From a virus (Duplodnaviria > Caudoviricetes), in the IMG/VR virus record IMGVR_UViG_3300020050_012045, positions 94,597-158,596 of that record: DNA of 64,000 bases. The stretch is one strand, 5' to 3'. Under the pieces are notes generated by a model. It did not search any database. It was not told where the DNA came from and worked only from the letters and a program-made list of their open reading frames with translations. Positions 1,970-18,436 of this stretch are shown here, one piece after another. Numbering within the stretch: the stretch's first letter is position 1; every line of letters starts with the position of its first letter. The translations under genes and the position numbers were made by a program.

Positions 1970-2260
1970 TCATTTCAACCTCTTCTCTAACTCGATCAAC
2001 ATATCGAACTCATTTTCTAGTTTGGCAACCTTTTCCTGAATTTTCTCCAGCTCGCTATCAATCGCTTCTCTTCGTGTTTCCATTTTCTCTAACGCCCAAG
2101 CCTTCAAATTGAGCTTAGCCTTTGCAACCTGCTTCTCAGAGCAGGTCCGACACAGCCAGTGTGGCCATAACTTAGTCTTTAACGTCAGGTAGCCCTGAAA
2201 TTCTTCTACCCAGAGTTTGTCGTTTATCCTTGTTTTAACGATCTCGAAGCTCATCGGCAA
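1970..2260 (-). CDS. Hypothetical protein with C-terminal coiled coil
   Basis: 96 aa ORF, GGAG upstream. Confidence 0.5.
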   Translation of the reverse strand: MPMSFEIVKTRINDKLWVEEFQGYLTLKTKLWPHWLCRTCSEKQVAKAKLNLKAWALEKMETRREAIDSELEKIQEKVAKLENEFDMLIELEKRLK

Positions 2261-2313
2261 TCTCCTTGTAAAAGCAAGCTACCCGAAATCGACATCGGTG
2301 TCGAATCATTTGT

Positions 2314-2342
2314 TTGACATCAATACACAGTTCCTGTATTCT
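2314..2342 (+). promoter_or_regulatory. Sigma70-type promoter, leaderless
   Basis: TTGACA-17-TATTCT then 6 nt to ATG 2349. Confidence 0.7.
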
Positions 2343-2348
2343 TCTCTC

Positions 2349-2564
2349 ATGAACACGAACTGCAAAAACCAAAACGGATGCTCAGTGCGTATCGCTAACG
2401 GCTTACGTTGTTTCTGTGACCCAACCTTGACCGTGACTTGGCAAGCCAACAAGCCGGGTGAATTCCCAACCCAGGAAGCCGCTCTAGCTGTCGCCAATGG
2501 CCGTCCAGTTGTTCGTGTTTGTCGAAATTTCGGCCACTCGCCAGCAGTGTGGATTGTTCGATAA
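2349..2564 (+). CDS. Small Cys-containing hypothetical early protein
   Basis: Start placed at ATG 2349 from promoter geometry. Confidence 0.5.
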   Translation: MNTNCKNQNGCSVRIANGLRCFCDPTLTVTWQANKPGEFPTQEAALAVANGRPVVRVCRNFGHSPAVWIVR

Positions 2565-2622
2565 TTTCAGATGTAAGTTGACCTGTCGATTAACTTCCTG
2601 TACTGTCACGCAAGGAGCTAAT

Positions 2623-3123
2623 ATGTTGCAATTCGTCAAATACTTTTTCAACAACGATGTCAAGCCGCACGTTATCGCAAACGAACTTGCCCAAGACATT
2701 GAAGACGACATCTATGTCCGATACTTAGCCCTTGCCTATACCGAGCAGGAAGCTGAGGAGTTCTTCTTTGACCATTCTGGTTGTTGCTTGGCAGTGCGAT
2801 CGTTGGAAACATTCAACATTGACGGGCTGTCTGTAGTATTTCCGTCCGACTACCTACTGATGGGATTGTCGGAAGTTCTTCAGGCTTCCCCTCGGTTCAT
2901 TAACGGTAAGTCGTATTTCAAGCTGTATTCTTCGATGGGGTGCTTGATTTTGACTCCAGAGCAGCATAAAAATCTGTGTTCCCAGATTCGTGCTGACCTG
3001 GACGGCATCATTGAACGTGGAACCATCGACCAGCAGAAGTTGATTTCTGGGTTGAACAGCCTGCGAAACCATGATAACTTTGTGGTTAGCAAGTCGGTCC
3101 CTGAACAAAGCTTCGAGAACTGA
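2623..3123 (+). CDS. Hypothetical protein
   Basis: TTGACC-17-TACTGT promoter and AAGGAG RBS before ATG 2623. Confidence 0.55.
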   Translation: MLQFVKYFFNNDVKPHVIANELAQDIEDDIYVRYLALAYTEQEAEEFFFDHSGCCLAVRSLETFNIDGLSVVFPSDYLLMGLSEVLQASPRFINGKSYFKLYSSMGCLILTPEQHKNLCSQIRADLDGIIERGTIDQQKLISGLNSLRNHDNFVVSKSVPEQSFEN

Positions 3124-3360
3124 GGTCGTAATGGGTCAGCCATCTACTTGGGCGCTAGAGAAAGCTCGTGAGAGCATCTATGTCAACGAGAACGAACCTG
3201 TTGAGGTTCATTGCTTTGGTAAAGTCTTCCTTTACGACAAGACAGCTAACGCTCTAAAAGCTTGCGATCAGATGGTGGTCTTGTTCGCTCAAGCGCTTGA
3301 TGACTTTCATTCGCAGATGCTGGTATTCTCAGTATGGACACCTAAAGTAGGAGACGAATC

Positions 3361-3717
3361 GTGACTAACCAACAAATTTTTGACACCGTGGCAGACCATC
3401 TTTTGAAACAGCGCAAGAAATCGCTCAAAGACGGACTCTGTGTTTACCGATCGGGCCACAAAGCTAGCAGTAGGGTTCGTTGCGCAATTGGATGTCTGAT
3501 TAAGGATGAGTTTTACCACAAGCGTATTGAGGACAATACTCCAGATATTCCAAAAGTATTGAAGGCTTTGAAGGATTCGGGGATTGGTCGGATGACTCGC
3601 AATAAGATGGATTTACTTCACTCGCTTCAGAGAGTTCATGACTCTTACGAACCAAGAGAATGGGATGCACGTCTTCGGGGGTGTGCTGCCATATATGGGC
3701 TGAAGGTTAATTTCTGA
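3361..3717 (+). CDS. Phage hypothetical protein
   Basis: C-x-YR...CAIGCLI...LQRVHD pattern typical of phage early proteins; AGGAG RBS. Confidence 0.55.
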   Translation: MTNQQIFDTVADHLLKQRKKSLKDGLCVYRSGHKASSRVRCAIGCLIKDEFYHKRIEDNTPDIPKVLKALKDSGIGRMTRNKMDLLHSLQRVHDSYEPREWDARLRGCAAIYGLKVNF

Positions 3718-3719
3718 TC

Positions 3720-4631
3720 ATGACAGACTTCAAACCAATGAAAGCCTCCGTCTGCGAATCGTTCGATGACGTCAAATTTCCTGTCTTGGTTTCGCCAAAG
3801 CTTGACGGTATCCGGTGTGTCATTGTCGATGGCGAAGCCAGATCGAATTCTCTGAAGTTGATTCAGAATAAGTTCATCCAAGAAACGCTCAACACTCTAC
3901 ATGTAGATTCATGTGGTGAGCTTAATGGTCTCGATGGCGAGCTGATGCTACAAAACCCCAAAGCAAGCTTTCAGGAAATTACCGGGGCTGTCATGAGGCA
4001 GACAGGTGAACCAGAGTTCGTATTTTACGTTTTTGACGATTTCACAAACCCTGACCTCTCATTCCTTCAAAGGGATGCCAATACCGCCACGAAGATACGT
4101 GAACACTTCAGCGGCTCGAAGTATGTCAAGCACCTTAAGCACGAGTTGGTTAGCAACCAGGTCGAGCTGGAGCGTCTTTATAGGGAGTATTTAGATCTTG
4201 GGTACGAAGGAGCCATGATTCGCTCCTTAGATGGCCAATACAAGTTTGGCCGAAGCTCAGCTAAGCAGGGATGGCTATTAAAGCTGAAGCCTTTTGAAGA
4301 TGCAGAAGCTGAAATCGTTGGTTTTGAAGAACGGGTGGAGAACACCAATGAGGCGTACACCAATGAGCTTGGCAGGACCGCAAGATCGTCTGCTAAGGCG
4401 GGGCTGGTACCGCAAGGAACCCTTGGAGCTTTCTTGTTGCGCCGTCCAGACGGCGTTGAGTTTAGCTGTGGCTCAGGGTTGAATGACCAGCTTCGAGATG
4501 AGTATTGGAGTAAGAAAGAGCAGATGTTGGGTCAGATTGTAAAATACAAGTTCCAGAAAATCGGGTCTGACGTGAAGCCGAGACTGCCTATCTTTCTAGG
4601 AATTCGACATGTGGATGATTTTAGTCGTTGA
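3720..4631 (+). CDS. lig: ATP-dependent DNA ligase
   Basis: SPKLDGIR (motif I KxDG), LDGEL, FYVFD, YEGAMIR, LLKLKP, C-terminal OB domain. Confidence 0.95.
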   Translation: MTDFKPMKASVCESFDDVKFPVLVSPKLDGIRCVIVDGEARSNSLKLIQNKFIQETLNTLHVDSCGELNGLDGELMLQNPKASFQEITGAVMRQTGEPEFVFYVFDDFTNPDLSFLQRDANTATKIREHFSGSKYVKHLKHELVSNQVELERLYREYLDLGYEGAMIRSLDGQYKFGRSSAKQGWLLKLKPFEDAEAEIVGFEERVENTNEAYTNELGRTARSSAKAGLVPQGTLGAFLLRRPDGVEFSCGSGLNDQLRDEYWSKKEQMLGQIVKYKFQKIGSDVKPRLPIFLGIRHVDDFSR

Positions 4632-4655
4632 CTTTTAATTCAGTTCTGATATTCT
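4628..4655 (+). promoter_or_regulatory. Sigma70-type promoter, leaderless
   Basis: TTGACT-16-TATTCT with TGn extension, 6 nt to ATG 4662. Confidence 0.65.
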
Positions 4656-4661
4656 TGTCTC

Positions 4662-4910
4662 ATGAACAACGAATACAAATCCCAAGCAGAGTTCCAAACC
4701 GCAATGGACGCAGCCTTCCAAAAGGTCATGATTCCTGGCCAGCACTGGAAGGACCGTATCTGCAAGATGGTGGAAGCTCAACCATCTGAAGTTGATCAGA
4801 TTGTTAAGGCGATTGAGTTTTTTACTGGAACCAAGGCAACCGTTGAGCGCCTGGACGTTTGCATCTACCGGATTCGCGCTGCTGGCTACTGGGCCGGCCC
4901 TTGCGCTTAA
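4662..4910 (+). CDS. Hypothetical early protein
   Basis: 82 aa ORF directly after promoter. Confidence 0.6.
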   Translation: MNNEYKSQAEFQTAMDAAFQKVMIPGQHWKDRICKMVEAQPSEVDQIVKAIEFFTGTKATVERLDVCIYRIRAAGYWAGPCA

Positions 4911-6619
4911 TCAACATTAGGTAAGCGACTACTGGCAACCCCGCCGCTCTGGCTCATCACCATCCCCGAACGAACTGACCGCCAACGAGCTGGCTTTTTC
5001 TTGCCTGTTGCTTGGTCACGTACGGCGGTCTTGATCTTCTTCTTATGGACAGCCCCGTTGGCTCCTGTCCCTACGCCCGCCAGTGGCTCAGGAAAAGACA
5101 GCTTCTTTTCTAGCGACGCCATCTTCCTGCCGTCTGGACCGTCAGTCACGTTAGCTACAGTTGCTAGGTGTTCCCAGGCTTTACCAGCGTTTGGCGACAT
5201 CTTAGTGTCTGAGTAAATCTTGCCGTGGTGCTGGATTGCCCCCAAGTACAACGCCTTGCCGTAGCCATGCCCTTTATAGTCTGGGTGAACAGCAATCGAT
5301 TCGACCGAAGGGATGCCGTCATCTTGCAACGCCATATGAAGTTGTGCTATGTGGGGCTTGCGTGGGTCAGCTGAGCGTGATAGGGTGTGTGAATGAATCT
5401 GGCCCTGAGCACCTTCAAACGTGTGATGGAAGAAACCGTTGCCGATGGGCTTGGCATTGGTGTGGTCAAGGTAGTTAAACTGTTCCGCCAGATTAGCATA
5501 TCCCTGGTGAGAGCCAAGCTTATTACCGTCTTCCTGGCTCATGTCGGTCTTGAACAGCTGTTCACTCTTTTTAATGGACTCTGATTCCTGGTTAGCAGCT
5601 TGCTTGATCTCGGACATCTGCTTAGCCATCGCTACCATGGCTTGAGAGATATGACGGATTGTGTCGTAAATCTCTGGAGACGCCTGCTTTAGTTCCTCGA
5701 TCTTAGCCGAGTGCTCTTTAAGAAGCTTGATTCCGGCCATGATAACTTCTGTCGGGTCTTCTTGCTGTTGGGCGAGCTGACCGTGGGCGTCTGGGTGTTC
5801 AGCCTTATTTAGGCCAGCCTGGTCATCATCATCATGTTTATTCAAAGGTCGAGACTTGAACCTACCTAGATCATTAGCTAAGGTCTTTTTTTCAACAAAA
5901 CTCTCTAATCCGCCAAAGGCGGTCTCCGTGTGTTTGAATGGCTTTTGTGGAGTCGTCCAATAATCCGTGTGACCACGCCCAATGATTCGGGCGTTTATTG
6001 GTGTTTTAGCGCCGCCAGTCAAGAGGTGTGCCGCTAAACGGTGATGCCCATCGGTAAGCAGGTGTCGTCCATCTTCTAGCTGATGAAGCTCTATTGGTTT
6101 ACCGCTTGAAAATGAGCCCTTACCAAAAACGTTGTTATCGTGGGCTGCCATCATAGACTCTCTGCTACAGAGAATATCTTTTGGTAAAAAGCTAACTACT
6201 GGCGTCTCGTCGTGTTCAGCCTTAGCCAACGGATCTTCCTCCTCTTCTTCTGGAAGGTCCATGTCGTCATGATACAGGCTGATTTTGTCGCCGTGGTACA
6301 GCCCGTACTCGCACGCTGACTTGGCATGAGGCGCTTCCACGCCGACACCGAAGCAGAACTCCATCTGCGAGCAGGATGAGATGAACTCACACAACTGGTC
6401 CAGGTCTACCAGGTGTTCAGCTTCAACTTCAAACACACCCATGGTGCAGGCGTTAAGGATTTCCTTGCCGTGGTGGGTTTCAATCCAAGAGCTGATAGCT
6501 TTGTTAACTGAGTCTAGGGCGTAGTTCAGCTCGTACAGTTTGACCTCTTGCCCGGAATCGTAAGCTGAGTTTAGCTCGAACTCAAAGTCCTTGGTTCCCC
6601 ATTGAATGTAGGTCAACAT
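4907..6619 (-). CDS. Polyvalent virion-cargo protein: degenerate mCpol-like + ParB/Srx-like + GNAT
   Basis: N-terminal 117 aa with mCpol-like layout but no catalytic Asp; LLTDGHHRLAA (ParB); VHPDYKGHGYGKALY...SD..MS..A...W (GNAT); LAKAE, LNKAE, IKKSE, LFKTD linkers. Confidence 0.7.
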   Translation of the reverse strand: MLTYIQWGTKDFEFELNSAYDSGQEVKLYELNYALDSVNKAISSWIETHHGKEILNACTMGVFEVEAEHLVDLDQLCEFISSCSQMEFCFGVGVEAPHAKSACEYGLYHGDKISLYHDDMDLPEEEEEDPLAKAEHDETPVVSFLPKDILCSRESMMAAHDNNVFGKGSFSSGKPIELHQLEDGRHLLTDGHHRLAAHLLTGGAKTPINARIIGRGHTDYWTTPQKPFKHTETAFGGLESFVEKKTLANDLGRFKSRPLNKHDDDDQAGLNKAEHPDAHGQLAQQQEDPTEVIMAGIKLLKEHSAKIEELKQASPEIYDTIRHISQAMVAMAKQMSEIKQAANQESESIKKSEQLFKTDMSQEDGNKLGSHQGYANLAEQFNYLDHTNAKPIGNGFFHHTFEGAQGQIHSHTLSRSADPRKPHIAQLHMALQDDGIPSVESIAVHPDYKGHGYGKALYLGAIQHHGKIYSDTKMSPNAGKAWEHLATVANVTDGPDGRKMASLEKKLSFPEPLAGVGTGANGAVHKKKIKTAVRDQATGKKKPARWRSVRSGMVMSQSGGVASSRLPNVD

Positions 6620-6852
6620 TAGTTCAGCTCGTCAGGTGAGACATCTTCGTCAGAGTCTTCGGGGAGGTCGCCCATCTGCTCAACTACCTCTTCAAGGAGT
6701 CCAGCAAGAAATAAAGACTTCTTGTATTCGTCGTCTTCAGCTGGAGTTAGAGTGCCTTTTTCGTACAGTTCGATCGCTCGCTTCTGGTACTGATTAGACC
6801 ATGCGACGCACTCGGCTTCAGAGATTACAAAACTTGCCATTGGTTTGATCAT
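6619..6852 (-). CDS. Small acidic hypothetical protein
   Basis: Overlapping stop/start with both neighbours. Confidence 0.55.
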   Translation of the reverse strand: MIKPMASFVISEAECVAWSNQYQKRAIELYEKGTLTPAEDDEYKKSLFLAGLLEEVVEQMGDLPEDSDEDVSPDELN

Positions 6853-7181
6853 AACAGGATATCCGCTGGGTGGTGGGTGAAGTGGAGTGGCAACTCTGAC
6901 TTGACCAAAAGCTTAAGGTTGGGAGAGCCATAGTTTGCCTGCTTACCAATAGCCGACTGGTGGGCTTCGTACATGAAGCGATGACGTGCCGATTCCTTGG
7001 GTTGTCCCATTTTTTGGAATTCAACAGCTAAATGATGGTGGTGTGCGGACGCTAGCTCGTGTTGGCGGCGCTTGTACTGCTGGTAAGCCTGGGTGTGCCC
7101 ATGGGTTTGGGCGGCTAGGTCGAGATGTTGGGCATCAGCAGGATCAGAGATCGTCTGATTCCGCCACTGTGGCTTGTCCAT
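6849..7181 (-). CDS. His-rich putative head protein
   Basis: HHHH run, LVKSE motif, in late operon. Confidence 0.55.
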   Translation of the reverse strand: MDKPQWRNQTISDPADAQHLDLAAQTHGHTQAYQQYKRRQHELASAHHHHLAVEFQKMGQPKESARHRFMYEAHQSAIGKQANYGSPNLKLLVKSELPLHFTHHPADILL

Positions 7182-7938
7182 TAACTAGCTCCTCGACCAA
7201 CGTGACCAAATCAGAGTCACCAGTCAAAGTGTACGTTTGTTTGTCTGGAGATACTTGGATTTGGTGGTCAGCCTTAAGAAGCTTCGAGGTGCAGACGCAG
7301 CCGTCAAAAGTACCCCAACGCTTGTGAAGCTGGGGAGAGCCGCAAGTTTTGCATACCTTGGACAGCTCTGACTTGTTGAACGTCTTAGATGCTGCAACCA
7401 TTCCGGCAACCATTGGAAGCTTAACCTTCCGAGCCTTGCCAGTAATCTGGCCTTTGTCTGGGGGCTGTGGACCGTTCTGTTGCATCGGCGCTCGTGGAGC
7501 TGCGAACTTACCAGGAGCGTCAGTCTTCTGGAGTGATTGCAGCCAGGCGTTAGTTTTGTGTTTTACCAACAAATCCAATGACTTAGACAGCTTGCCGATG
7601 TCTGATTGGCTGACCTTGGAGTCAACCGATGAAGTCTCCCCTAGGTTGACCAGAAGGATGGCTGTCATCTTAATGAGGTCTTGGGGCTCGGAGGTCAGGG
7701 TGTAGTCACCTGATTCAACTGACAGCTTGGATTCGGACTTGGACAGGCTGATTTGCCCCTGAATACCAGGGATTTCGCCTTGGTATTCACTGTTCTGCGC
7801 GGTCTCAAGGAACGTCAGGACGGCCTTCGGCAGCAAAGCGTTAGCTAGCTCCGGATAAGCCGTGGCCGCCTTGGACAGCACCTGAAAACCGTCAGGGCCC
7901 AGGATGGCAAGCAGGAATGTGTTAGCCTGTTGATTCAT
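7144..7938 (-). CDS. Putative head-associated protein with C-terminal Zn-binding motif
   Basis: Start ATG 7938 after late motif; LSKSE, LSKSL, LQKTD, FNKSE motifs; CKTC...CVC. Confidence 0.6.
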   Translation of the reverse strand: MNQQANTFLLAILGPDGFQVLSKAATAYPELANALLPKAVLTFLETAQNSEYQGEIPGIQGQISLSKSESKLSVESGDYTLTSEPQDLIKMTAILLVNLGETSSVDSKVSQSDIGKLSKSLDLLVKHKTNAWLQSLQKTDAPGKFAAPRAPMQQNGPQPPDKGQITGKARKVKLPMVAGMVAASKTFNKSELSKVCKTCGSPQLHKRWGTFDGCVCTSKLLKADHQIQVSPDKQTYTLTGDSDLVTLVEELVNGQATVAESDDL

Positions 7939-7945
7939 TCGTTCC

Positions 7946-8227
7946 CTAAAGATTGTTAGGTGGTTCTGGAACGATATTGCCGTCTTTGTCGACCCAGACA
8001 AGTTTGCCGTCGCGCATAGTGGGTACGGGTCGGCCTTGATCGTGATGTTGCTTTACGGCGGCTGAGGCAGCATCTTTGAAGGCTTGTTCCTCCTTGAGGA
8101 GTTCTTCAGACTTCAGGATAGGCGACTTAGGCCGGTTGAATGACGGCATGTTCTCCAGATGGTCGTCTGGAGTAAGGGTGATACGGATTACTTTACGTGG
8201 TTTGGTAGGAATCATGATTTCTCCCAT
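7946..8227 (-). CDS. Small hypothetical protein
   Basis: 93 aa, ILKSE motif. Confidence 0.5.
   Translation of the reverse strand: MGEIMIPTKPRKVIRITLTPDDHLENMPSFNRPKSPILKSEELLKEEQAFKDAASAAVKQHHDQGRPVPTMRDGKLVWVDKDGNIVPEPPNNL
7947..7956 (-). promoter_or_regulatory. Putative late promoter ACAATCTTTA
   Basis: 8 nt before ATG 7938. Confidence 0.6.
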
Positions 8228-11178
8228 ACTTCTGAATCATCGCCTGCTGTGTCTGGATCTAATTCCGTTCCCTTTGTTGGTGCATCAAAGTCAGACAGCT
8301 CGTTGGCCAGCATGTCTATCTCAGCCTTATCATACACCGGCCCCATGTCTGGAGCCGTTGGTTTGAAAAAGTGACCAATACCCGAGTAGCTTTGTTTTGG
8401 CACTGGAAATCCATGTTTCTCCACTAGGTATTTGTCATGCGGCTCAAAGGGGTTAGTAGTTGGTTTAGTGTTATAGTAACTCAAGGTATGCTGAATGTCT
8501 TCTTTAGGTATCGTCAAAAACGGCTGCTTGTGCTGAAAAATTAGCTCATGCTCATGTGGGTGTATGTGATCTTGTGTTTCGGACACTTTATGGACGCCAG
8601 AATGTAACAGGTCTTCCACTGGCATCCACTTTCTCATCATGACAGAAGCATTGTTTTGACCACGAACGTAACGCTCAGAAAAGCTTTTTGCGATACTCTG
8701 CTTGGTCGTCCACGAGCTAAACTGAGCATTGGGAATCTGGACGTCATCCGCTCCTTGATCCAAAGCGGTCTTGATTTTATGTCCGTATTCACCACCGACA
8801 CCACGATACACTAAAATATGGGGTTTGCCATCGATATGTTTGATTGCAGCTCTTGGATCTTTCAGAAGCGCGGATTGAACGTCCTGAGCATGGAGGGCTA
8901 TGCCCTTGTGAATGCCTGGGTATACACTTGAGCGCCCCCTATCTCCTCTGAAGCCGGTCAGTGTCACATCATCGTCATTGCCATTGTGATACTTCTGAAC
9001 AGTTGCAAAATGATCAGCCTTAACTGATTGTTCGTAATCATTCCAGAACTTATGGACTCTTTCCTTGATTAGAGATGGATGGGAATGTAACCTCTCTAAC
9101 AGCTCTTGGTGTCTCTCTGTCTTGTGCTGATTGTAGGGATATCTATCGAGCACGTAAACAATCTGGGAGATCATCCTAGGGTTGTCGAAATGACTATTCA
9201 GATCCTGTCGGTCTGGGTCGATCGATAGCTGATTGGCGATCATGTCAGCAGGCTGAGTTCCTGACAAGGACGACACAGCTTGGGCAATTTGCTCAGAGTT
9301 GAGACGCACCCCTAGTTCTGCATTACTTCCAATTTGAGACAAAGCAAATCCCCCAATCGCTGGATGATTGGCCAATTCATGAGCGATTACTTTTTGCTTT
9401 TGAGAGTCCTGCACCATACGATGAAGACCAAGCACTATATTTGAGTCCCACATCGGGTTTTGCTTCCACAAAGCGTGGTAGAGTTTAGCTCGATCTTGCG
9501 GTCCAACGTTTGCCTCAAGCAGTGCATGTGTCGGAATTCCGTTACCGCTAGCGACCGCCGCATCTAGCGTTCTGTGGAATTCCTCGGGGGTCACAGTGGA
9601 AGCTAGATGTGGCGGTAAAAACATAGCTCGCCCTGGAGAACTCATAGCCCACTGTTTGAACTTTTCACCCAGCCTAGGCTTCGTGCTAATATCGGGATCT
9701 TTTAGAGACTCACCATCCCCTTGCAAAAAATCCATCACGGTATTGGTGCTTAAGTGCGGCTGAGCCGTGTCAGAAGTGAAGCTGTTCTCGAAAAAGTTTA
9801 CGAGACCATCTTCAGATGCAAGCCTCATCTCATGGCCGATGTCTCTTTCCAAGTAATTAGAGATCTTCTCGAAACTTGGGAATTTTTCAGCCGCCTCAGA
9901 AAATCTACTTAGAGAGATGTCGGCAAAAACCCGTCTCTTCAGGGGGTTGTCGCTATTAAGGACTTTGCTGATTGATGAATGAATCCCCCCTTGATTCCAG
10001 ATCGCCTCAATTGGTGCTTCTTTTAGAAACTTTTTCAACTGTCCTGCCGACATCGCCTTGATCATCCCATCTGGCGGCGGTGCAGGAACGCCGTATGGAT
10101 TCTTATTATTCTTGACCTCTGAGAGATACAGATCTTGCTGCCTTTGGACGTCATCAGACAGTGGATTATGTTCATTGAGATCGATCTCGTGCTGCCTCTG
10201 CTTCTGTCTCTTCTGTTCAGCCTCATGCTCAGCAAGCTCTTGTTCGTCCATCAGAAACCAAGGCTCGTCATCTTCTGCCTTAACCAAGCTCTCATTAGGC
10301 TTGACCCACAGCTTCAGCATCAGACCAATCGAGTTCTTGGCGTTCTTCAGGGTGTCAAACCGTCGCTTGAACGGTTCGACATCGATCCCATACTCTCTCA
10401 AGATCTGGAAAACCCTAGTCTCGTCAATCGAGTTCAGCCAGTTCAGGAACTGAGTCTCTTGAACAGCTGATGGTTTAGCTAGATATCGTAACTTAGCCTC
10501 AGGAGGAAGGGTGTTAAAACCCTTGGGAGCGTCCGACCGCAAGTAGTACGGGATGAAGGTCTTGGTGTCGCCACCTGGATTGAAGCCATCACCCGCGAAC
10601 GCCCCACCGTGGTCAATCAGTTTGACGTCTTCGGTCTCTGGGTCAATCAGAATGTTATTTGAGTGACGGTCAGTGTTCCCAAGAACGTAGTCAAGGAATG
10701 ACCATTGCCACATTTGGCCACTGTCTTGGTAGTCCTTAAAGATATCAATGACGCCCTGTTCGCCAGTTGGCTTCTTTTGTAGGAACGGAATGTTCTTGTA
10801 GCCTGTGTCGGCCAGTTCGATTGCGGCGGTCTCGTGGCCGTCCAGGAAGACAACTGTTGCTTTGGCGAACTGGTCACCATCCCCAACTAGTGACGCGATC
10901 TCAGAGAACGCCGCTTCGCGCTTGGACTTAGAGACAGGTAGGTCGTTAACCCCAGCAGCTGGTGATTGTTTCGAGACTTCTGGCTTAAGGAGCCATGCTC
11001 GTTCGTTTTCGGGATCCAGCGCAATCGCCGCCCCGTTGGAATACTTACCGGCCAAATGGATATCAAACACGAGGTGCTTAGCGTAAGCTTGCTGAATAGC
11101 CTCGGCGGTCCCCTTGTCTTTGGCGAACAATGGCTGGACGTCACGTGGAATGACGGAAGCTGAGAATTTAGCGTCCAT
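8212..11178 (-). CDS. Polyvalent protein: PI3/PI4-kinase-like (HipA/CtkA-type) kinase + C-terminal R-S-E ADP-ribosyltransferase
   Basis: LLKP...REAA...DYVLGNTDRHSNN...LIDHG kinase; VYRGV...FSSWT...HEHELI ART; LVKAE linker. Confidence 0.8.
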   Translation of the reverse strand: MDAKFSASVIPRDVQPLFAKDKGTAEAIQQAYAKHLVFDIHLAGKYSNGAAIALDPENERAWLLKPEVSKQSPAAGVNDLPVSKSKREAAFSEIASLVGDGDQFAKATVVFLDGHETAAIELADTGYKNIPFLQKKPTGEQGVIDIFKDYQDSGQMWQWSFLDYVLGNTDRHSNNILIDPETEDVKLIDHGGAFAGDGFNPGGDTKTFIPYYLRSDAPKGFNTLPPEAKLRYLAKPSAVQETQFLNWLNSIDETRVFQILREYGIDVEPFKRRFDTLKNAKNSIGLMLKLWVKPNESLVKAEDDEPWFLMDEQELAEHEAEQKRQKQRQHEIDLNEHNPLSDDVQRQQDLYLSEVKNNKNPYGVPAPPPDGMIKAMSAGQLKKFLKEAPIEAIWNQGGIHSSISKVLNSDNPLKRRVFADISLSRFSEAAEKFPSFEKISNYLERDIGHEMRLASEDGLVNFFENSFTSDTAQPHLSTNTVMDFLQGDGESLKDPDISTKPRLGEKFKQWAMSSPGRAMFLPPHLASTVTPEEFHRTLDAAVASGNGIPTHALLEANVGPQDRAKLYHALWKQNPMWDSNIVLGLHRMVQDSQKQKVIAHELANHPAIGGFALSQIGSNAELGVRLNSEQIAQAVSSLSGTQPADMIANQLSIDPDRQDLNSHFDNPRMISQIVYVLDRYPYNQHKTERHQELLERLHSHPSLIKERVHKFWNDYEQSVKADHFATVQKYHNGNDDDVTLTGFRGDRGRSSVYPGIHKGIALHAQDVQSALLKDPRAAIKHIDGKPHILVYRGVGGEYGHKIKTALDQGADDVQIPNAQFSSWTTKQSIAKSFSERYVRGQNNASVMMRKWMPVEDLLHSGVHKVSETQDHIHPHEHELIFQHKQPFLTIPKEDIQHTLSYYNTKPTTNPFEPHDKYLVEKHGFPVPKQSYSGIGHFFKPTAPDMGPVYDKAEIDMLANELSDFDAPTKGTELDPDTAGDDSEVWEKS

Positions 11179-13715
11179 CAGAACATCCTCCGAAGTTGCT
11201 CAATGTCATTAACCGTCTGTTGTGTCCGTGGTAGTCCATATGCAAAAATAGCCGCCCACACCGGATTGTCATCGTACCGCCACAGTGCTTCTCTGTAAAG
11301 GTCTTCATCAAACTGAGCGTGAGGCGCTAGGGTCTTAGCTGCACGGAACTCTGGCAAGGAGGAGAAATCCCCCATTGCGATCTTAACCGGGGTGTGGAAC
11401 CTGTTCAGAATGTGCTGATAGTCTTGAGTGTACTGTTGCTGGTCGAATTTGTGAAGGTTATTGAGTTCGACCCAGTTCATGATCTCGGACTTTCCAAGAT
11501 AGTTCTCTTGGGTTGGCACGCCTAGATACTTTTCATTATTCTGGGTCTGAGCAGACTCTGGACCATAACCACCCTTAACTGGGGTGTACCCCATTTTAGG
11601 GGGAGCGTCACCGTAAGTGTTCTGGTGGTGGTGAGTTAATGGTTCATTGGGATCTAGACCAGATAAATCAGGGTTTTTGTGCTTAGCTTCGGCAGTGAAC
11701 ATGACGACTTTAAGCGGCTGGTGGTCAGTGACCTGCCCTGAGTCACGAAGATGTTGGTGGAACGCTTCGTGGAGCACAGTAGTTGGGGCCTTACCTTGCC
11801 ACAAAATCTTTTTAATTTTGTCCCACTTTACCCCTTGGACGTGGCCGTTTGTCTGGGAGTAGTCGGACTGAAGCTCGTCAATGTGAGGGATGCCGTCGTC
11901 ACCCTTAGTGTATCTGACCCAACCTATGCCGTCATCAGCCGCAACTGGGTGAACGCCAGACTTAACGATCTTGTCGTGTAAGTCTTTGTATTCGTGATAG
12001 ACGCCTTCGGCAAGCATTTGGCGCTTTTGACCTGGCGTCATGTGAAGCCTGAAGACGTCCTGGTTGGGGTGCCCATCTTCGTCTTCTAGGTGGTCGTCAT
12101 GTCTCTGGTGGGGTCCGTCATAGTATCCGTGAGAGTATTTGTACTGAAGCTTAGGGAGTGAATCGATTCTCTGGCTTAGCTTAGTGACGTCAGTGTTTCC
12201 CTTGCCATCGAACACGTGAGCGTGACCTTGGGTCCGAAGGTCGATTCCCAGATCCTTAAGCTGTTTCTCGTTGATTACCCCGTTGTTTTGTTTGGCATGC
12301 ATTCTAGCCAAACGAAGACGATTGGACCCAATAGTGACACCAATGTGTGAACCGGAATTATCGACGTTTCTTAATCCGTTGATGATTGGATGGAAACCAA
12401 CTGGGTACATCGCCTTAAGTTTTTCAAATTGTTGATCGTTAGCGACAGGCAGTAGTCGCTCTAGGAGTTTACCTCCGTCGCGATTATAGTAGTCAGGTGG
12501 AGATTTCATGGTTGACATATAGTTCTCTATATGTCGCTCATCGATTGGCAGATGTAGAAGATCGTCAGGCTCCCTATCTCCCGTAAACAGCTTTAGTGAA
12601 TGCTCTTTATCAAACTTCGGGTGGTCAGTCAGCCGGAAAGTATGGGTTGGATTCTCGTCCATCAGGCGATGGATATCTTGGGACTCAAGATGAGGCGACT
12701 GGGTAATCTGCCTCAGAATTTCTTCCTGTGCAAACTGATGAGTGGACAGAACCGGATCGTTACGCAACCGATCGTACACTTCCATGGTTTTGTTACGCGA
12801 AATTCTTCCCGCCGCTTGAGCCGCAACCCAGTCGTTACGTTGGGTCAGTTTATCCAAGTGTTGAGGCGTAGCATGTTTAGCGGCAGCTAGGAGCCCAGGG
12901 TGCTTGTCGACCATGTAGTCTTGGGACTCGGGCGACCACTTGACGTTTCTTGAAATCTCACCATTTAATTCTTCCAAAGCGTACGGTGTGGCATTTTGGG
13001 CAAAGAACTGCTTTTGCGCCTCTGGCGAGAAAACGTGCTCAAGACCAGGCGAACTTAAGTCGTTAAAAGCTAACCTAAGCTTCCTTGGTGGTGCAGCGGG
13101 ATTCAACGCCGCTTGCTTGACCATGTCGCCAACAACTCGATGCACAACCTCTGGATGTTTCTCTGCAAACTCAGCTCTGCCTTCTGAGGTGAGGTTTTGG
13201 TTAACAAACAAGTCGTAAGCGTTCTCTGGGGTTAGCTTGTGGGCGGCTTCTATCGGAGCACGCCCTTGGCCTGTCTTGACCAACTTACCGTACAGGTCGT
13301 TCATGACCTCCGGGTCTTGAGCAAATGGATGCTCGAATACCTTGGTCACATTGATGGAATTTCGATCAGTTGAACTATTCACGATGTGATCAAACTGATC
13401 TTTTGACAGAGCGGGGTTATCAAGGGCGTCCGAGCTGAGGTTGAAGTAGTTTCGAGGGAAGTTATTTATGACAGCCTTGATCAAATGAGCATAAGCGGGG
13501 TTCTTGATTAGCTGTGACCTAGCGGTCTTAAACAGCTGCTGCTGATCACTGGACCGATAGTTAGGGTCTATCAGAGCATGAGCTAGCGAGTCGCTAATCT
13601 TGTGCGTCTTGATTTTTTCGGCGATTTTACGGGCTTTAGGTGATGGCCAGTCGTTCTCGTTTTGTTCAATGAGATACGCCTCTTCCTCAGGTGTCAGGCT
13701 CGGAATGTCACTCAT
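11178..13715 (-). CDS. Polyvalent protein with helical repeats and GWVR...IDELQSD domain
   Basis: Helical-repeat-like N-terminal half; E-x-QSD motif seen in phage polyvalent proteins; LGKSE linker. Confidence 0.6.
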   Translation of the reverse strand: MSDIPSLTPEEEAYLIEQNENDWPSPKARKIAEKIKTHKISDSLAHALIDPNYRSSDQQQLFKTARSQLIKNPAYAHLIKAVINNFPRNYFNLSSDALDNPALSKDQFDHIVNSSTDRNSINVTKVFEHPFAQDPEVMNDLYGKLVKTGQGRAPIEAAHKLTPENAYDLFVNQNLTSEGRAEFAEKHPEVVHRVVGDMVKQAALNPAAPPRKLRLAFNDLSSPGLEHVFSPEAQKQFFAQNATPYALEELNGEISRNVKWSPESQDYMVDKHPGLLAAAKHATPQHLDKLTQRNDWVAAQAAGRISRNKTMEVYDRLRNDPVLSTHQFAQEEILRQITQSPHLESQDIHRLMDENPTHTFRLTDHPKFDKEHSLKLFTGDREPDDLLHLPIDERHIENYMSTMKSPPDYYNRDGGKLLERLLPVANDQQFEKLKAMYPVGFHPIINGLRNVDNSGSHIGVTIGSNRLRLARMHAKQNNGVINEKQLKDLGIDLRTQGHAHVFDGKGNTDVTKLSQRIDSLPKLQYKYSHGYYDGPHQRHDDHLEDEDGHPNQDVFRLHMTPGQKRQMLAEGVYHEYKDLHDKIVKSGVHPVAADDGIGWVRYTKGDDGIPHIDELQSDYSQTNGHVQGVKWDKIKKILWQGKAPTTVLHEAFHQHLRDSGQVTDHQPLKVVMFTAEAKHKNPDLSGLDPNEPLTHHHQNTYGDAPPKMGYTPVKGGYGPESAQTQNNEKYLGVPTQENYLGKSEIMNWVELNNLHKFDQQQYTQDYQHILNRFHTPVKIAMGDFSSLPEFRAAKTLAPHAQFDEDLYREALWRYDDNPVWAAIFAYGLPRTQQTVNDIEQLRRMF

Positions 13716-16700
13716 TATTGCACCTTAGCCATCTGGGGCATCTTTGAGATAATGTCAGCTGCACGGTCGTTGACAACCCTACCGTAATGCTTATGGAAGT
13801 CCTGGATATACTTTTCTGACTCTGGGGTTAGTCCAGTTTCGATTTGTTTTCTGGCACCGTTCTCGCCCCAACGCCAACCAAGGGCGGAATGTCCAATGTT
13901 TCCATTAAATACCGACTTCAGCCGATTCCACTCTTTGCCAGCAACAGTGTTGTACAGATGAGGGTTTGTCTGGAACTCTTTTAGGAACGCCGCCTGAACC
14001 TGTGGGTTCTTTTTCAGCTCCAACGGATGCTGTGACAACGGAGCGATGTTCGGGTAGATCTTCCGTAACGTTGGATCGTTGACGAAGTGCTCTAACCCGG
14101 TAGATGGCTTCATCCCCAACGGGCCGTAAGCGGTTTCAAACTCGCCGCCAGAATGAGCGGCATGGCCCCACAACTTACCACCAGCGGATTCATTCCCGGC
14201 TAATGCGACTAATTCAGGGTGTAACCCCTGCATGGTCCACGAACGCTTTGCTTCAAACTTGCCTGGAACATGAACTGTTTGGGCATCAGCAGACGTAGCC
14301 CCAAAGCCCTTAGTCTGGTCCATTTGGATTGGGTCTTTAGGCTGAGCCTGTACTGAACCTGACAAAATGGAGGCGGCTGCTAAACCCATTAGCTGATGCT
14401 TGAAAGACTTGCTAAGGGGTTCATTCACTACCACCCATTCTAGTAGCTGTTCAGTGGTCGGGGCAAACGATTTAGCTAGCTGTCCTGGCACGGAAATTGC
14501 TGCACGGGTCGAGACTGGCTTGACGGCCTTCATGTACCGACATGCTGCGTCAAAGACGTTATGTGGGAGCTTGTCTTTAGCTAAACTAAGATATTGGTTA
14601 CGAAAACCATATGAAGCGTACTTCCACGGAACGAGCTTAGGATCGTAAAGTAGAACATGATCAACATCTTCACCCAACCCGCGAACTATCTTGGCAGGAA
14701 GTGAAACCTTCTTATCTGGACAGTTAGCCAACGTCTCAAGGGCGTAAGATGACGGACCGTTAAGAAGAACGTGGTCAACGTCGAGCAAACCTTCACAAAC
14801 AAGCTCAGCTAAAGCGTCGTCACCCATGTCGTGCCAGTCGGTCATTGACGACCGTTGGTGTTCTGGAGCGTTTCTCAAAGCTTCCTTGATGACGTTCAGG
14901 TTCTCGCCCTTTTGAACTTGATCAGCTTTTGGATGTTCCCATTCATCTCTTCTTCCCATTGGAAGTCCCGTGTGCTGCTCCAAAGCTCTTACAGCTAAAT
15001 TTTTAGCCGATGGATGATCGAATGAGTGAAAATTACATCCACCTTTGTGATTAGCTAAGGCATACAGCTCTTTCTTGTTTGGGTGGACAAAACCCTCTAT
15101 TCCCGCGATGTTCTCATCAGATCCTTTTAATTTAGTGTGAGCTATCATGCGGTTTCCGTATGACTTCACCTCTGTCTCGTACGGACTCTCTGGCTGAGCC
15201 AGCTGTTCATCAAGTGAACGACCATCTCCGCGAATAACCGATATTGGGGTTGGCTTAGGTCCGTTGTATTCAGCGTAATGCAAGTGCTTAGGTTCTGTGG
15301 CTAATTTAACGGATAGTTCCGGATCTTGAGTAAGTTTCTGCCAAGTTTTGTGAGCGCCAAGAGAGACGTGGGTATCGGACGCCATTCGTCCATGCGTTTT
15401 GACCATTTGCTTATACAGCAAGGTTCCGTATCCTTGACCTATAAGGTGGCGAGCTGTGGCCGTTTCACCATGCTGAACAACAGGGTGCTCATCGTTCCAT
15501 GGGAGCCCTCTGTCTACATTGTATTGAGAAGCAGGGGTAGTGCCCGAAGCCGAACTGGCGAACCTCTCGCCAGCGAGCGGAGTTGGGCTGTTTGTTAATT
15601 CATGAAAGGTAGAGACATACCCCGATTGACCGACTGGCTGGTGATAAACATGATGATATATGCGACCGCCACCTAAGTCGGTGTTGGTGTCGTATGTTTC
15701 AACTTTATGCTGAGCTTCACTGCCGTAGATTTTATGGGGAGTCATACGTCGAGCAGTGTCTTCGCTAGTCAAGCCCACTTTCTTGAGATCTTCACCCTTA
15801 AGGACGTACTCGTATGGAGCGAACCGAGAATCAAAGTCGCCTGGCTGCTTGTCGCCGACCGTAGATGCTTCGGGTTTGTAGTCCATTCCGTGCTTTTGAG
15901 ACAAATGTTGGTGAACAGCGGACGCAGCAGTTGAATGCTCGTCTCCCTTAACTCGGCCAATACCCAGATGCTTAGCATGAACAAGAAGCGCTTCGTAAGC
16001 GAGCTTGCCTAGCCCCTTGCCTCTGTGTGGGTTATCCACAGACGAGAACCGTACCCTAGCTACAGACGGTTTGAAATGGAGCATTCCAGAAACCATTCCG
16101 GCTTCCTTAGCTTTGTGCCAAATCTTGGCTCCAATACCGTGCTCTCCTGGATCGCCAAAGTCGCGGGTTTCGACAGTCATCCGATAACCGTCTTTGACCA
16201 GCTCAGGGGGCAACATATGCGTGTACGAGTGAACTGGACCCCAATGGGTTGAAGTCAGCTTCTTGCCCTTAGGGATATCCGACAGGGATTTAGATAGGTC
16301 TTCAGCTGGAGCTTCGTTATCTTCCCAGTTTTCCTCGTCAAAGGATTCAGGTTGAATGTCAATCCCAGTCTTGGTGACGGTTTCAAGCTTGTACTGAGAC
16401 GCATCGCTCAGATGTAACGCCTTCATTTGGGCGATTTTGTTGATTGCGTCACGACGTTGGTTGTTTGAGCCATCGTCATTGGTCGCTTGATCAGAGGAAT
16501 CATAGGTTTCGACGTGCAGCCCCATGTTGCGAAGGAGTTGCTTAGTATGCTCAGACGCCGTATGTGGAACGACAGCACCCTTGAACTCATGAAGACCGAC
16601 CGCTCGCTGAGGCTTAGCTTCAAAATACTCGGTTGGTAGGTTACGCAGACGATGAGCGAATTCTGCGATCTTGGCGACTTGGTGAGGCTGGAGGTCCAGG

Positions 16701-18436
16701 CCAGACTCTTTAAGTTCGCGGCTTAAATACTTACCCTTTTTGTAAGACTCGCCCATCGCTTCCAAGACTGGAGACGAAGACAGGTCATTAGCGCTCAGGA
16801 AGTCTGTGAACTCATTGTCTAGTTGCTCGCACTGAGCCTTGAAGCTCTTGTTGTCAATTACCTTGTGACGATCCTTTTGGATGTCCTCGACCGAACGGAA
16901 TTTCTTGGCCCCAATAGCTCTGGTAGATCCAAGGCCGTAGTTAAAGTTCTCGCCGCCACGCACTGGCTTCTTTGTGACTTCTTTAACGATATTGGACAGC
17001 GTATATGGAAGCTTACGATCCCTAGGGCCGTTGATGGTATCAACACGCTTAGGTATGTAGCGGTCACCAACCAGTTCCTTTTCTTTCGAGGCTTTCCAGT
17101 GGTCGAAGTCTTCTTTATGGGGCTCGATTAGCTTAGACACCTGTTCATTGTAGTGGTCAGGATCGTGTTCTGTTTCGCCAACCTTGTTCGCCTGAGTTAC
17201 AATGCGATCCATTGCGCCATAGTTTAATTGACCATTATCAAAAAGATAATCGTACTCTGGCGCTCTTACCAATCTCTGAACGACTTCTTCATCTAGGTCA
17301 GTGCGGTTCCCAGCAAAATTGTGACTCTCGATAGCTTTTTTAACGGCATCTGACAAAGTTTTGTGCTCTGGTGAGCCAAACACTATGTTCCGGCTCAAAG
17401 CTGGGGTGCCGCGAAGCTGTTGAACATGAGGTGATACTACCCATTCATGTCTGTCGATCTTTTTGGGTCTGGTCTGAGTAGGGACTGCAATGCCCTTCTC
17501 TTTAAGAAAAAGAGACGAGAGGACTTTGTTAGGTGTATCGCCCACGTACCTAGGGTCCGTTAACTTGCCACTTGCTAACAGGTCAGTCTCTATACCCTGA
17601 TCGGCACCGTTCTTGTCTACAAGCTTAGCGTGCTCTCTTAGGTCTCTTGCGAAGTTAGTCCACTTTTTCTCGTTGAGCGCGAACTTAGCCCGTGGATGTC
17701 TAGGCGAGTAAACATCTGCGTCAAATACGGGCACACCCTGTTTAGGGTCAACCAAGGTGTGGTCGCCAACCAGAGTAATCTCACCAAACGAAGACAAGGG
17801 GTGGTCTTTGTGAGCAATCGCAATCGATGGGGCGGCCAACCCACCAAGCTCGTGAGCATGATGAAGCCCAGCTTCGCTTAGGTTGTGGGTAACTATTAAG
17901 TTCTTCTCTGGTTCAGGCTTTGCTTTAGCCTTGACTGGTTTTGGGCCAGTTGGCTTAGCGGACAACCCAGCAACGAGCTGTGCATCTTCGGTCTTAATCA
18001 AGTCCAGGTATTCGATTGGCATCAACTGGAGCAGAACGTTGTGACCTTCTGGAATATGAAGGTTGTTGGCGATCTTAGCTGGAAGCCCATGCTTGATGTC
18101 AACGAACTTCAACGAGTCTTCAACGAACTCATCGTCCGGGTCGTTCTTGCATGATGGAACGTAGTCAGCTGGAGCTTTAACCTTGAACACATGGACAATC
18201 ATCTCGCCAGACTTGATGTGCTTACAGCCAATGTACTGGCAGTCCTCTTCAGTCAGGTCGAGGTCACCCTCTTCTTTAGCTTCACGAATAGCGGCTTCAG
18301 TTGGGGACTCATCACCTTCCATAGAGCCGGCTATGGTCGTCCAGGAAGAGTTATCCTTGCGACGCCCCCACAACATAGCGCCGTCAGGGTTAAAGACGCC
18401 GAGGCAGACGACTTGTTTTGGTTGTGAGTTTTTCAT
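13715..18436 (-). CDS. 1573-aa polyvalent protein: Nudix + polyvalent-protein domain + 2 GNAT + lytic transglycosylase-like
   Basis: Nudix box GSMEGDESPTEAAIREAKEEG; HRGKGLGKLAY and IGQGYGTLLY GNATs; NESAGG...AYGPLGMKP...ALGWRWG lysozyme-like; LIKTE, LSKSL, VLKGE, VQKGE, LAKSF, LSKSF linkers. Confidence 0.8.
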   Translation of the reverse strand: MKNSQPKQVVCLGVFNPDGAMLWGRRKDNSSWTTIAGSMEGDESPTEAAIREAKEEGDLDLTEEDCQYIGCKHIKSGEMIVHVFKVKAPADYVPSCKNDPDDEFVEDSLKFVDIKHGLPAKIANNLHIPEGHNVLLQLMPIEYLDLIKTEDAQLVAGLSAKPTGPKPVKAKAKPEPEKNLIVTHNLSEAGLHHAHELGGLAAPSIAIAHKDHPLSSFGEITLVGDHTLVDPKQGVPVFDADVYSPRHPRAKFALNEKKWTNFARDLREHAKLVDKNGADQGIETDLLASGKLTDPRYVGDTPNKVLSSLFLKEKGIAVPTQTRPKKIDRHEWVVSPHVQQLRGTPALSRNIVFGSPEHKTLSDAVKKAIESHNFAGNRTDLDEEVVQRLVRAPEYDYLFDNGQLNYGAMDRIVTQANKVGETEHDPDHYNEQVSKLIEPHKEDFDHWKASKEKELVGDRYIPKRVDTINGPRDRKLPYTLSNIVKEVTKKPVRGGENFNYGLGSTRAIGAKKFRSVEDIQKDRHKVIDNKSFKAQCEQLDNEFTDFLSANDLSSSPVLEAMGESYKKGKYLSRELKESGLDLQPHQVAKIAEFAHRLRNLPTEYFEAKPQRAVGLHEFKGAVVPHTASEHTKQLLRNMGLHVETYDSSDQATNDDGSNNQRRDAINKIAQMKALHLSDASQYKLETVTKTGIDIQPESFDEENWEDNEAPAEDLSKSLSDIPKGKKLTSTHWGPVHSYTHMLPPELVKDGYRMTVETRDFGDPGEHGIGAKIWHKAKEAGMVSGMLHFKPSVARVRFSSVDNPHRGKGLGKLAYEALLVHAKHLGIGRVKGDEHSTAASAVHQHLSQKHGMDYKPEASTVGDKQPGDFDSRFAPYEYVLKGEDLKKVGLTSEDTARRMTPHKIYGSEAQHKVETYDTNTDLGGGRIYHHVYHQPVGQSGYVSTFHELTNSPTPLAGERFASSASGTTPASQYNVDRGLPWNDEHPVVQHGETATARHLIGQGYGTLLYKQMVKTHGRMASDTHVSLGAHKTWQKLTQDPELSVKLATEPKHLHYAEYNGPKPTPISVIRGDGRSLDEQLAQPESPYETEVKSYGNRMIAHTKLKGSDENIAGIEGFVHPNKKELYALANHKGGCNFHSFDHPSAKNLAVRALEQHTGLPMGRRDEWEHPKADQVQKGENLNVIKEALRNAPEHQRSSMTDWHDMGDDALAELVCEGLLDVDHVLLNGPSSYALETLANCPDKKVSLPAKIVRGLGEDVDHVLLYDPKLVPWKYASYGFRNQYLSLAKDKLPHNVFDAACRYMKAVKPVSTRAAISVPGQLAKSFAPTTEQLLEWVVVNEPLSKSFKHQLMGLAAASILSGSVQAQPKDPIQMDQTKGFGATSADAQTVHVPGKFEAKRSWTMQGLHPELVALAGNESAGGKLWGHAAHSGGEFETAYGPLGMKPSTGLEHFVNDPTLRKIYPNIAPLSQHPLELKKNPQVQAAFLKEFQTNPHLYNTVAGKEWNRLKSVFNGNIGHSALGWRWGENGARKQIETGLTPESEKYIQDFHKHYGRVVNDRAADIISKMPQMAKVQ

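Follow-up and report, generated by a model that had tools for sequence, protein, structure and literature searches.

Enzyme modules joined at a putative Lys-directed prohead protease site in the late proteins of an Mx1-like phage

In phage T4, the prohead protease gp21 cuts after Glu in (L/I)xE. The internal proteins of T4 and its ADP-ribosyltransferase (ART) Alt are head proteins that are processed by the prohead protease and injected (PMC5512222). In SPN3US, phiKZ, and 201phi2-1, head-internal proteins, the portal, and the protease are processed at AXE by gp245/gp175, with multiple cuts per chain (PMC10052503, PMC7411985), and 13 of the 14 cuts mapped in SPN3US take off N-terminal propeptides (PMC10052503). 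For the polyvalent proteins of phages, either self-processing by an embedded zincin-like MPTase or delivery of the intact chain has been proposed (Iyer et al. 2017; PMC5512222). Such proteins are widespread, and their packaging and processing are still largely guesswork. Here, we analyze a stretch of 64,000 nucleotides (the window, whose numbering is used throughout) comprising bases 94,597–158,596 of one 158.6-kb phage contig, IMG/VR record IMGVR_UViG_3300020050_012045. A group of late proteins in the window consists of enzyme modules joined at a short Lys-containing motif, which recurs in the major capsid protein (MCP), the scaffold, the portal, and the prohead protease. From this arrangement we infer, with a probability of roughly two in three, that the late proteins are polyproteins that are packaged into the head, processed by the prohead protease, and delivered together with the DNA.

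The strict form of the motif is [LIVMF]xK[SATG][ED], and a looser form is Phi-x-K-[SATG]; a vertical bar in a motif marks the putative cut. The open reading frames (ORFs) and motifs listed in a preliminary description of this DNA were all found where it had placed them (Table 1). To measure enrichment, all 213 ORFs of the 158.6-kb genome were scanned, and the expected counts were derived from composition-preserving shuffles within each protein (n = 1000). The cargo set (p570, p110, p285, p988, p845, p1573, and p482; 4853 aa) contains 15 strict sites compared to 3.2 expected, an approximately five-fold excess that is reached by none of the 1000 shuffles. The head set of four proteins contains 10 compared to 1.7 expected (0/1000 shuffles), including two portal sites that sit within an intein and are probably there by chance. 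No strict-site enrichment is seen in the other 202 ORFs (43,185 aa; 18 sites vs 22.4 expected), and the large non-head proteins of 945–1928 aa have no strict sites at all. Four control motifs (Lys replaced by Arg, the reversed motif, and two permuted orders) are not enriched in any of the sets. The proposal that the motif is dense in late relative to other proteins is thereby confirmed. The pattern is replicated in Myxococcus phage Mx1, a 169.6-kb myovirus (PMC10720576) to which the phage is related (MCPs 53% identical): with the sets fixed by synteny, 12 strict sites fall in the Mx1 cargo set (2.8 expected), 6 in the head set (0.9 expected), and 12 in the remaining proteins (9.9 expected). 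The codons used at the sites vary freely, indicating that the constraint acts on the protein and is not a DNA repeat. A recombination signal at the DNA level was considered as well and ruled out, as many different codons are used.

The sites coincide with the borders of exchangeable modules. When the cargo and protease proteins of five phages were compared (the window, Mx1, and three metagenomic relatives; loci L002–L006), 29 of the 131 internal BLAST breakpoints fell at most 15 aa from a strict site, compared to 11.2 expected (0/2000 simulations), and the control motifs showed no association with breakpoints. Between phages, modules are permuted, split, and fused, and they are also found as free-standing ORFs in the same register. 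The Nudix module, for example, is N-terminal in p1573 but internal in Mx1, and the PBECR5 block of p1573 follows immediately upon IHKSE in another protein of contig A. The kinase module (..S/V-A/I-IPRD..) opens its protein at Met1 in the window and contig A, but in Mx1 and contig B it begins immediately behind LKKGE and LDKSE, respectively. Its end is marked by LVKAE, LSKAE, or a stop codon. The module borders of p1573 agree with the homologous ones of Mx1, contig A, and contig B, in which these modules occur permuted or split. Residues 319–744 of p845 align with residues 346–782 of A_p1421 and end at the latter's own IHKSE site, and the C module of p845 is seen again at the C-terminal end of A_p1421 and, flanked by two sites, in the kinase protein of Mx1. 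Even paralogues within the window align from site to site (p570 347–511 with p1573 876–1056, and p482 217–330 with p988 163–302). Ahead of the SLT-like module, each of the four phages compared has [LF]xK|[SG]x, then K/R, and then a hydrophobic, signal-peptide-like stretch; the location of this stretch after the site is easiest to understand if cleavage exposes it as a new N-terminus. We are highly confident that the motif has been selected as a functional boundary between modules and is linked to head maturation.

The individual sites can be followed in p570, for which 79 homologues with 20–30% identity were aligned. The K133 column has Lys in 49 of 50 sequences, a hydrophobic residue at P3 in 54 of 54, and Ala, Ser, or Gly at P1' in 47 of 50; the K351 column has Lys in 57 of 65 and Glu at P2' in 50 of 64. 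Around both sites the linkers are otherwise variable and acidic. The cassette at residues 134–272 occupies the exact interval between DPLAK|AE and GLNK|AE; one close homologue has another module in its place, and three others have none, with a single L[FA]K|AE left. An AlphaFold2 (AF2) model, calculated from an alignment of full-length homologues and GNAT fragments (alignment A4), has pLDDT values above 90 for mCpol (1–121), the helical hairpin (289–350), and GNAT (362–502), with sharp dips at 125–140 (K133) and 351–360 (K351/K357). In the domains that were modelled, pLDDT exceeds 94; residues 136–280, including K272, were left unmodelled because the alignment has no depth there. The earlier proposal that the motif lies at domain boundaries and linkers is therefore upheld by the breakpoints, the cassette exchange, and the pLDDT dips at K133 and K351/K357, with K272 falling outside the model. 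The mCpol-like assignment also holds: 32 of the 79 homologues have an mCpol Pfam match, and the module superimposes on the Panoptes defence sensor OptS (9pd0/9mnr) with a TM-score of 0.83 (the value for 9pd0), a root mean square deviation (rmsd) of 2.0 Å, and 24–26% identity. The GNAT module was likewise confirmed. The ParB domain proposed for the cassette found no support, with no Pfam match for p570 (E up to 1) or for ten homologues of the cassette module (E up to 0.01); a DGHHR string is the sole visible feature. The C-terminal ~50 residues of p570 form a near-invariant tail (..KKPARWRSVRSGMVMSQ.GGVAS.R.PNV), which persists in over 40 distant homologues that differ in module content. One homologue has an EncFtn-like (encapsulin-cargo) domain.

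Several effector domains are likewise combined in the other large late proteins. Pfam matches in p1573 comprise NUDIX (7e-11), PBECR5 (9e-20), and GNAT (5.5e-6), and p988 matches PI3_PI4_kinase (8.8e-10); the Nudix, GNAT, and kinase modules named in the preliminary description are thus supported, the kinase match of p482 being weak, and the domain that it had left unnamed after Nudix is PBECR5. Searches of PDB sequences returned Nudix matches alone for p1573 and nothing useful for p988, and p845 has neither a Pfam nor a PDB match. The ART and SLT assignments of the same description are leads only, stemming from language-model and structure look-alikes. For residues ~700–900 of p988, the Atlas look-alikes are DRAT/ART/Mod (0.85–0.90, TM-score 0.41–0.48) and the Pfam DRAT match has an E-value of 0.18, which suggests an ART-like region; for the C-terminal module of p1573, the Atlas look-alikes (0.90, 22 of 30 matches) suggest an SLT-like fold and, as a lead, a lysin. 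By domain content these are polyvalent proteins, with Nudix, PBECR5, and GNAT in p1573, mCpol and GNAT in p570, and a kinase and more in p988, all in synteny with virion genes. A different character is seen in p285, whose homology begins at M22 (position 7938), with a CAATCTT sequence 10 nt upstream. Its homologues, present in all relatives, have an equally high, scaffold-like site density, and it may be an adaptor or core protein. The C-terminus of p285 contains a Cys-rich, zinc-finger-like stretch.

The head proteins share the motif, as had been claimed for the MCP N-terminus, scaffold, portal, and protease. The MCP matches the phrog_752 'major head protein' profile (3.6e-42 over residues 3–463), and its N-terminus in 120 relatives consists of a variable lead of 7–17 aa followed by a near-invariant LxKA[LM]EAG. 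At the aligned position, Herelleviridae MCPs read ALNK|ALEAG (the SPO1-like CampHawk) and NISK|AFVAG (Lactobacillus phage Bacchae), and Phi-x-K-S occurs 11 times in the 244 aa of the CampHawk scaffold. The scaffold of the window shares 33% identity with the protein encoded upstream of the MCP in Mx1, and this Mx1 protein contains 4 strict sites. Like the portal of the window, that of Mx1 has one site near each end (LAKSE at 45, ISKSE at 637). The window portal is interrupted at residues ~431–877 by an intein, absent from the Mx1 portal, that includes a LAGLIDADG homing-endonuclease domain (Pfam Intein_splicing 4.6e-12 and LAGLIDADG_3 2.7e-6).

Judging from its AF2 model (pLDDT 83.5 overall, above 90 for residues 1–170), the 746-aa protein has a genuine prohead-protease (assemblin) fold. 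The best VIA match is T4 gp21 (5jbl; Z 10.3, rmsd 2.5 Å over 122 aa), the next 35 VIA entries are all herpesvirus proteases (Z 5.7–9.2), and the top Foldseek matches belong to the same families with weak E-values. A PDB sequence search with the protease domain gave nothing useful. In a sequence alignment of 62 homologues, H41, H101, S126, and K220 are invariant, and the gene has the same position between portal and scaffold/MCP in Mx1. Just behind the catalytic domain, residues 214–300 include a segment of ~70 aa that resembles the N-terminal arm of the MCP (37% identity; LEK|AWMAG...QGAATQKED compared to LVK|AWQAG...QGAATQIED in the MCP). The resemblance is conserved in the 62 homologues, and by mimicking the MCP the segment may draw the protease into the shell during assembly.

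In its relatives, the protease is itself fused to effectors. The layout of 120 homologues is protease, site, MCP-like segment, further sequence, the protC module, and a second site, followed by an effector module that is either PI3/PI4-kinase-like, the p482 C module with GGDEF (P0166, P0169, P0186, P0193, P0198, and P0199), or PBECR5. A Phi-x-K-[SATG] site is present from −45 to +10 aa of the start of the fused module in 46 of 59 cases, compared to 16.6 expected. In the window, the kinase, p482 C, and GGDEF modules are encoded beside the protease gene, in p482 and p212. The kinase of p482 has its counterpart at the C-terminus of the 1239-aa Mx1 protease and is also fused in many other relatives, and the C module of p482 is a separate ORF in four relatives. 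A prohead protease acts within the prohead, and the fusions therefore provide the strongest evidence at hand for counting such modules among the head cargo.

In the mechanism that we propose, p1573, p845, p988, p285, p110, and p570, together with p482 and p212, would encode independent enzyme modules: Nudix, the RNase-like PBECR5, GNATs, PI3/PI4-kinase-like modules, the mCpol and GGDEF cyclases, an ART-like module, and an SLT-like lysin. Their joint, Phi-x-K|[S/A/G/T]-[E/D/Q], would be the same element that ends the MCP propeptide, fills the scaffold, and flanks the domains of the protease. The polyproteins would co-assemble into the prohead, some modules in relatives being carried in covalently by the protease. 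During maturation, the assemblin-fold protease would cut after Lys, yielding about 15 products from about 15 kb, and these would be kept in the head until they exit together with the DNA, their targets being host proteins, RNA, nucleotides, and peptidoglycan.

Several observations weigh against this proposal. Sensitive all-against-all BLAST of the cargo, scaffold, and head proteins of the window detected no capsid-targeting leader shared among the cargo proteins. The role of such a leader may instead be taken by the invariant C-terminal tail of p570, a candidate for anchoring in or targeting to the capsid, and, in relatives, by direct fusion to the protease; the site-dense p285 and the small conserved modules that lie between sites are further candidates for recruitment elements. 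The MCP site of this phage (KAWQ) has no acidic P2' residue, and several border sites are loose (LSKSL and LSKSF); some protease-kinase fusions do not have a strict site. The literature provided no confirming statement on the Lys specificity of related Herelleviridae proteases, and the Lys-specific (K|S) cleavage of Twort/K/A511 capsid proteins, taken as known in the preliminary description, is stated nowhere that full-text searches could find. A 211-aa protein adjoining the sheath gene, encoded just before the window start, has three sites (LKKAE twice and VKKAE once); it is of low complexity, rich in Lys, Pro, and Ala, and resembles the N-terminal part of Mx1 p559. Finally, p280, encoded just upstream of p1573, matches a 'tail fiber' PHROG, and a tail instead of a head location is possible for p1573 with its putative lysin.

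Four alternatives were weighed against head packaging and processing. The one that survives best, which we nevertheless find unlikely, holds that the motif is an uncleaved conserved junction, used for docking to scaffold or portal or as a structural linker, and that the proteins act as intact polyvalent proteins, packaged or not. In its favor, delivery as a large chain or processing by intrinsic peptidase domains has been proposed for polyvalent proteins (PMC5512222), and in p1573 the block around VLKGE shows conservation on either side of the site, unlike a floppy linker. However, no MPTase (zincin), MuF/portal-associated, or other peptidase domain was matched by Pfam in the polyproteins at E up to 1. 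The same motif follows the variable lead at the MCP N-terminus and is dense in scaffolds, both classic substrates of prohead proteases, the modules that it bounds exist as free-standing ORFs with the same start and stop register, and the signal-peptide-like stretch after LSK|SF requires a free N-terminus.

Most of the modules are enzymes typical of host takeover or counter-defence (Nudix, PBECR5, GNAT, kinase, mCpol, and GGDEF), and their rapid shuffling between relatives suits arms-race cargo better than a structural role. Both points make it improbable that the proteins, although substrates of the prohead protease, serve mainly in assembly, as core proteins or an accessory scaffold, with fragments that leave the head or stay inert, even if most propeptide fragments are expelled in SPN3US and T4 (PMC10052503) and p285 and its homologues combine a scaffold-like site density with the absence of an enzyme domain. 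Less probable still is that another protease, from the host or the phage, cuts the sites in the cytoplasm or after delivery, or that the polyproteins are tail-borne. A host protease does perform capsid maturation in staphylococcal phages of the 80-alpha type, and p1573 follows the gene with the tail-fibre PHROG and ends in a lysin-like module; yet the head module here encodes an assemblin-fold protease whose own domain borders contain the motif and whose counterparts in relatives are fused to these very modules. Chance or the composition of Lys/Ser/Glu-rich linkers, conceivable for a motif so low in information that ~4 loose sites are expected per 1000 aa, is effectively refuted by the flat shuffles and four permuted control motifs, by column-level conservation in distant homologues, and by the replication in the independent genome of Mx1.

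Table 1. Features of the window, with positions, strand, module layout, and sites
Feature	Positions	Strand	Description
p1573 polyprotein	13715-18436	-	Six modules: Nudix 1-148, PBECR5-containing 149-716, GNAT 717-880, GNAT-like 2 881-1176, unassigned 1177-1343, signal-peptide-like + SLT-like 1344-1573; five sites: K148 LIKTE, K716 LSKSL, K880 VLKGE, K1176 VQKGE, K1343 LSKSF
p845	11178-13715	-	Large module aa 1-742; LGK|SE at K742; conserved ~100-aa C module
p988	8212-11178	-	PI3/PI4-kinase-like aa 1-300; LVK|AE at K300; long C part with putative ART-like region ~700-900
p285	7144-7938	-	True start M22, 264 aa; 8 Phi-x-K-[SATG] sites, 4 strict
p110	6849-7181	-	Small protein; LVK|SE at K94
p570	4907-6619	-	mCpol 1-133, DGHHR cassette 134-272, helical hairpin 273-351, GNAT + invariant C-terminal tail 358-570; sites K133 LAKAE, K272 LNKAE, K351 IKKSE, K357 LFKTD
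p570 mCpol	6221-6619		
p570 C-terminal tail	4910-5060		
MCP	34597-36003	-	Putative 12-aa propeptide ending SLVK|AWQAG
Scaffold	36028-36801	-	257 aa; 5 strict sites
Prohead protease	40704-42944	-	746 aa; assemblin-fold domain aa 1-~170 (predicted); between portal and scaffold/MCP; sites LLK|TE K213, LEK|AW K220, LGK|SE K706 (protC module); MCP N-arm-like segment aa 214-290
MCP N-arm-like segment	42045-42305		Protease aa 214-300
p482	39266-40714	-	PI3/PI4-kinase-like aa 1-328; LAK|AE at K328; C module 329-482
p212	38631-39269	-	GGDEF-type nucleotide cyclase, Pfam GGDEF 7.8e-11
Portal	43971-47360	-	LEK|SI K48 near N-terminus; LSK|AE K1084 near C-terminus
Portal intein	44730-46070		
CAATCTT copies	580, 1608, 7949, 19735, 42969, 48410	-	
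Plus-strand block	2217-4910	+	
EndoVII/HNH-type endonuclease gene	33543-34478		Adjoins MCP
211-aa protein	93490-94125 (genome numbering)		Before window start

The late genes lie on the minus strand in the order terminase region, p346, portal, protease, p482, p212, scaffold, and MCP, followed by nucleotide-metabolism genes and then by p137, p280, p1573, p845, p988, p285, p110, and p570. Beyond p570 come a plus-strand insert and the neck genes, with sheath and tube just past the window edge. The gene order of Mx1 is the same, and its cargo genes lie directly between its MCP and tail sheath. Relative to Mx1, two elements look like mobile insertions: the plus-strand block, which breaks the late minus-strand operon between p570 and the neck genes, and the endonuclease gene adjoining the MCP. 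The sequence CAATCTT occurs six times in the window, always on the minus strand and just upstream of a late gene start, namely those of p329, p257, p285 (M22), the p137-p280-p1573-p845-p988 operon, the protease, and the p346-portal operon. Its total count in the window does not exceed chance; its placement would fit a late-promoter role and co-regulation of the cargo operons, the protease, and the portal operon, which we regard as a lead only. Relatives were gathered through a protein index, together with the contigs encoding them; single-sequence locus scans of IMG/VR with the MCP and p988 gave no match. The index scored only the 8000 candidates with the most shared words, and among these 970 MCP relatives were found at E ≤ 1e-10. 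The best listed are mainly metagenomic contigs, some of ~150–180 kb, which points to a large, almost unstudied clade. Herelleviridae MCPs are more distant tblastn matches of the window MCP (22–31% identity).

If the late proteins are indeed packaged and processed polyproteins, sequence alone could reveal what the virions of uncultured phages carry, a Lys-specific protease of the assemblin type would be defined, and virion-delivered kinases, acetyltransferases, RNases, and nucleotide cyclases would be tools for host takeover or counter-defence in the first minute of infection. The cyclases among them (p570 mCpol and p212 GGDEF) could interfere with cyclic-nucleotide immunity. Quite tentatively, we suggest a 'Gag-Pro-Pol-like' strategy, in which cassette effectors including mCpol and GGDEF, some of them borne by the prohead protease, would be loaded into the prohead, cut there at Phi-x-K|S/A-E, and fired into the cell, where decoy or inhibitory nucleotides could counter cyclic-nucleotide immunity before any phage gene is expressed, the site doubling as a recombination-tolerant joint. 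The clade offers a simple and testable rule of one protease, one short site, and cassette-like modules, and Mx1 on Myxococcus xanthus is a culturable model with the same architecture. Site-flanked cassettes and protease fusions could also guide the engineering of phage heads that carry foreign proteins in laboratory phage-bacterium systems.

Compared with known systems, the proposed arrangement is closest in principle to that of T4 gp21 with IPI-III and Alt: both have an assemblin-fold protease, one short motif common to the MCP, scaffold or core, and packaged proteins, and enzymes, possibly including an ART here too, that would be injected with the DNA. It differs in that the cut would follow Lys, and in that each T4 substrate is a single protein from which only a short targeting peptide at the N-terminus is removed, whereas here multi-enzyme chains would give many products, cassettes are shuffled at the sites, and the protease itself bears effectors in relatives. 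With the giant phages it shares a single motif present in many head proteins, the portal, and the protease; strings of separate catalytic modules have not been described there, however, and the motif and lineage differ, this being a ~160-kb phage with a Herelleviridae-like head module and not a jumbo phage. The Herelleviridae (SPO1/Twort/A511-type) have the phrog_752 MCP, [LI]xK|A[LF]xAG at the homologous position, and a scaffold dense in Phi-x-K-S. To our knowledge, neither cargo polyproteins nor protease-effector fusions occur among them, and the hosts here, unlike theirs, are Gram-negatives of the Myxococcota type. Polyvalent proteins resemble the late proteins in having several effector domains per late polypeptide beside virion genes, in domain types (PBECR, GNAT, and ART), in their extreme shuffling, and in their predicted co-delivery with DNA; what sets the late proteins apart is that a capsid-maturation site separates the modules, while MPTase and MuF domains, common but not obligatory in the polyvalent family, were not found. 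Retroviral Gag-Pro-Pol offers an analogy only, in that enzymes enter as protease or structural fusions and are freed by the viral protease in the assembling capsid; there is no homology, and both the protease class and the virus realm differ. A full-text literature search found no paper on prohead protease and ejection proteins that contains the word 'polyprotein'. The description of the locus as an undescribed system must be narrowed: the processing of injected head proteins by a prohead protease is already known from T4 and phiKZ/SPN3US, and what is new is the Lys-directed site, the organization of multi-enzyme polyproteins with cassette exchange at the sites, and the effectors borne by the protease itself.

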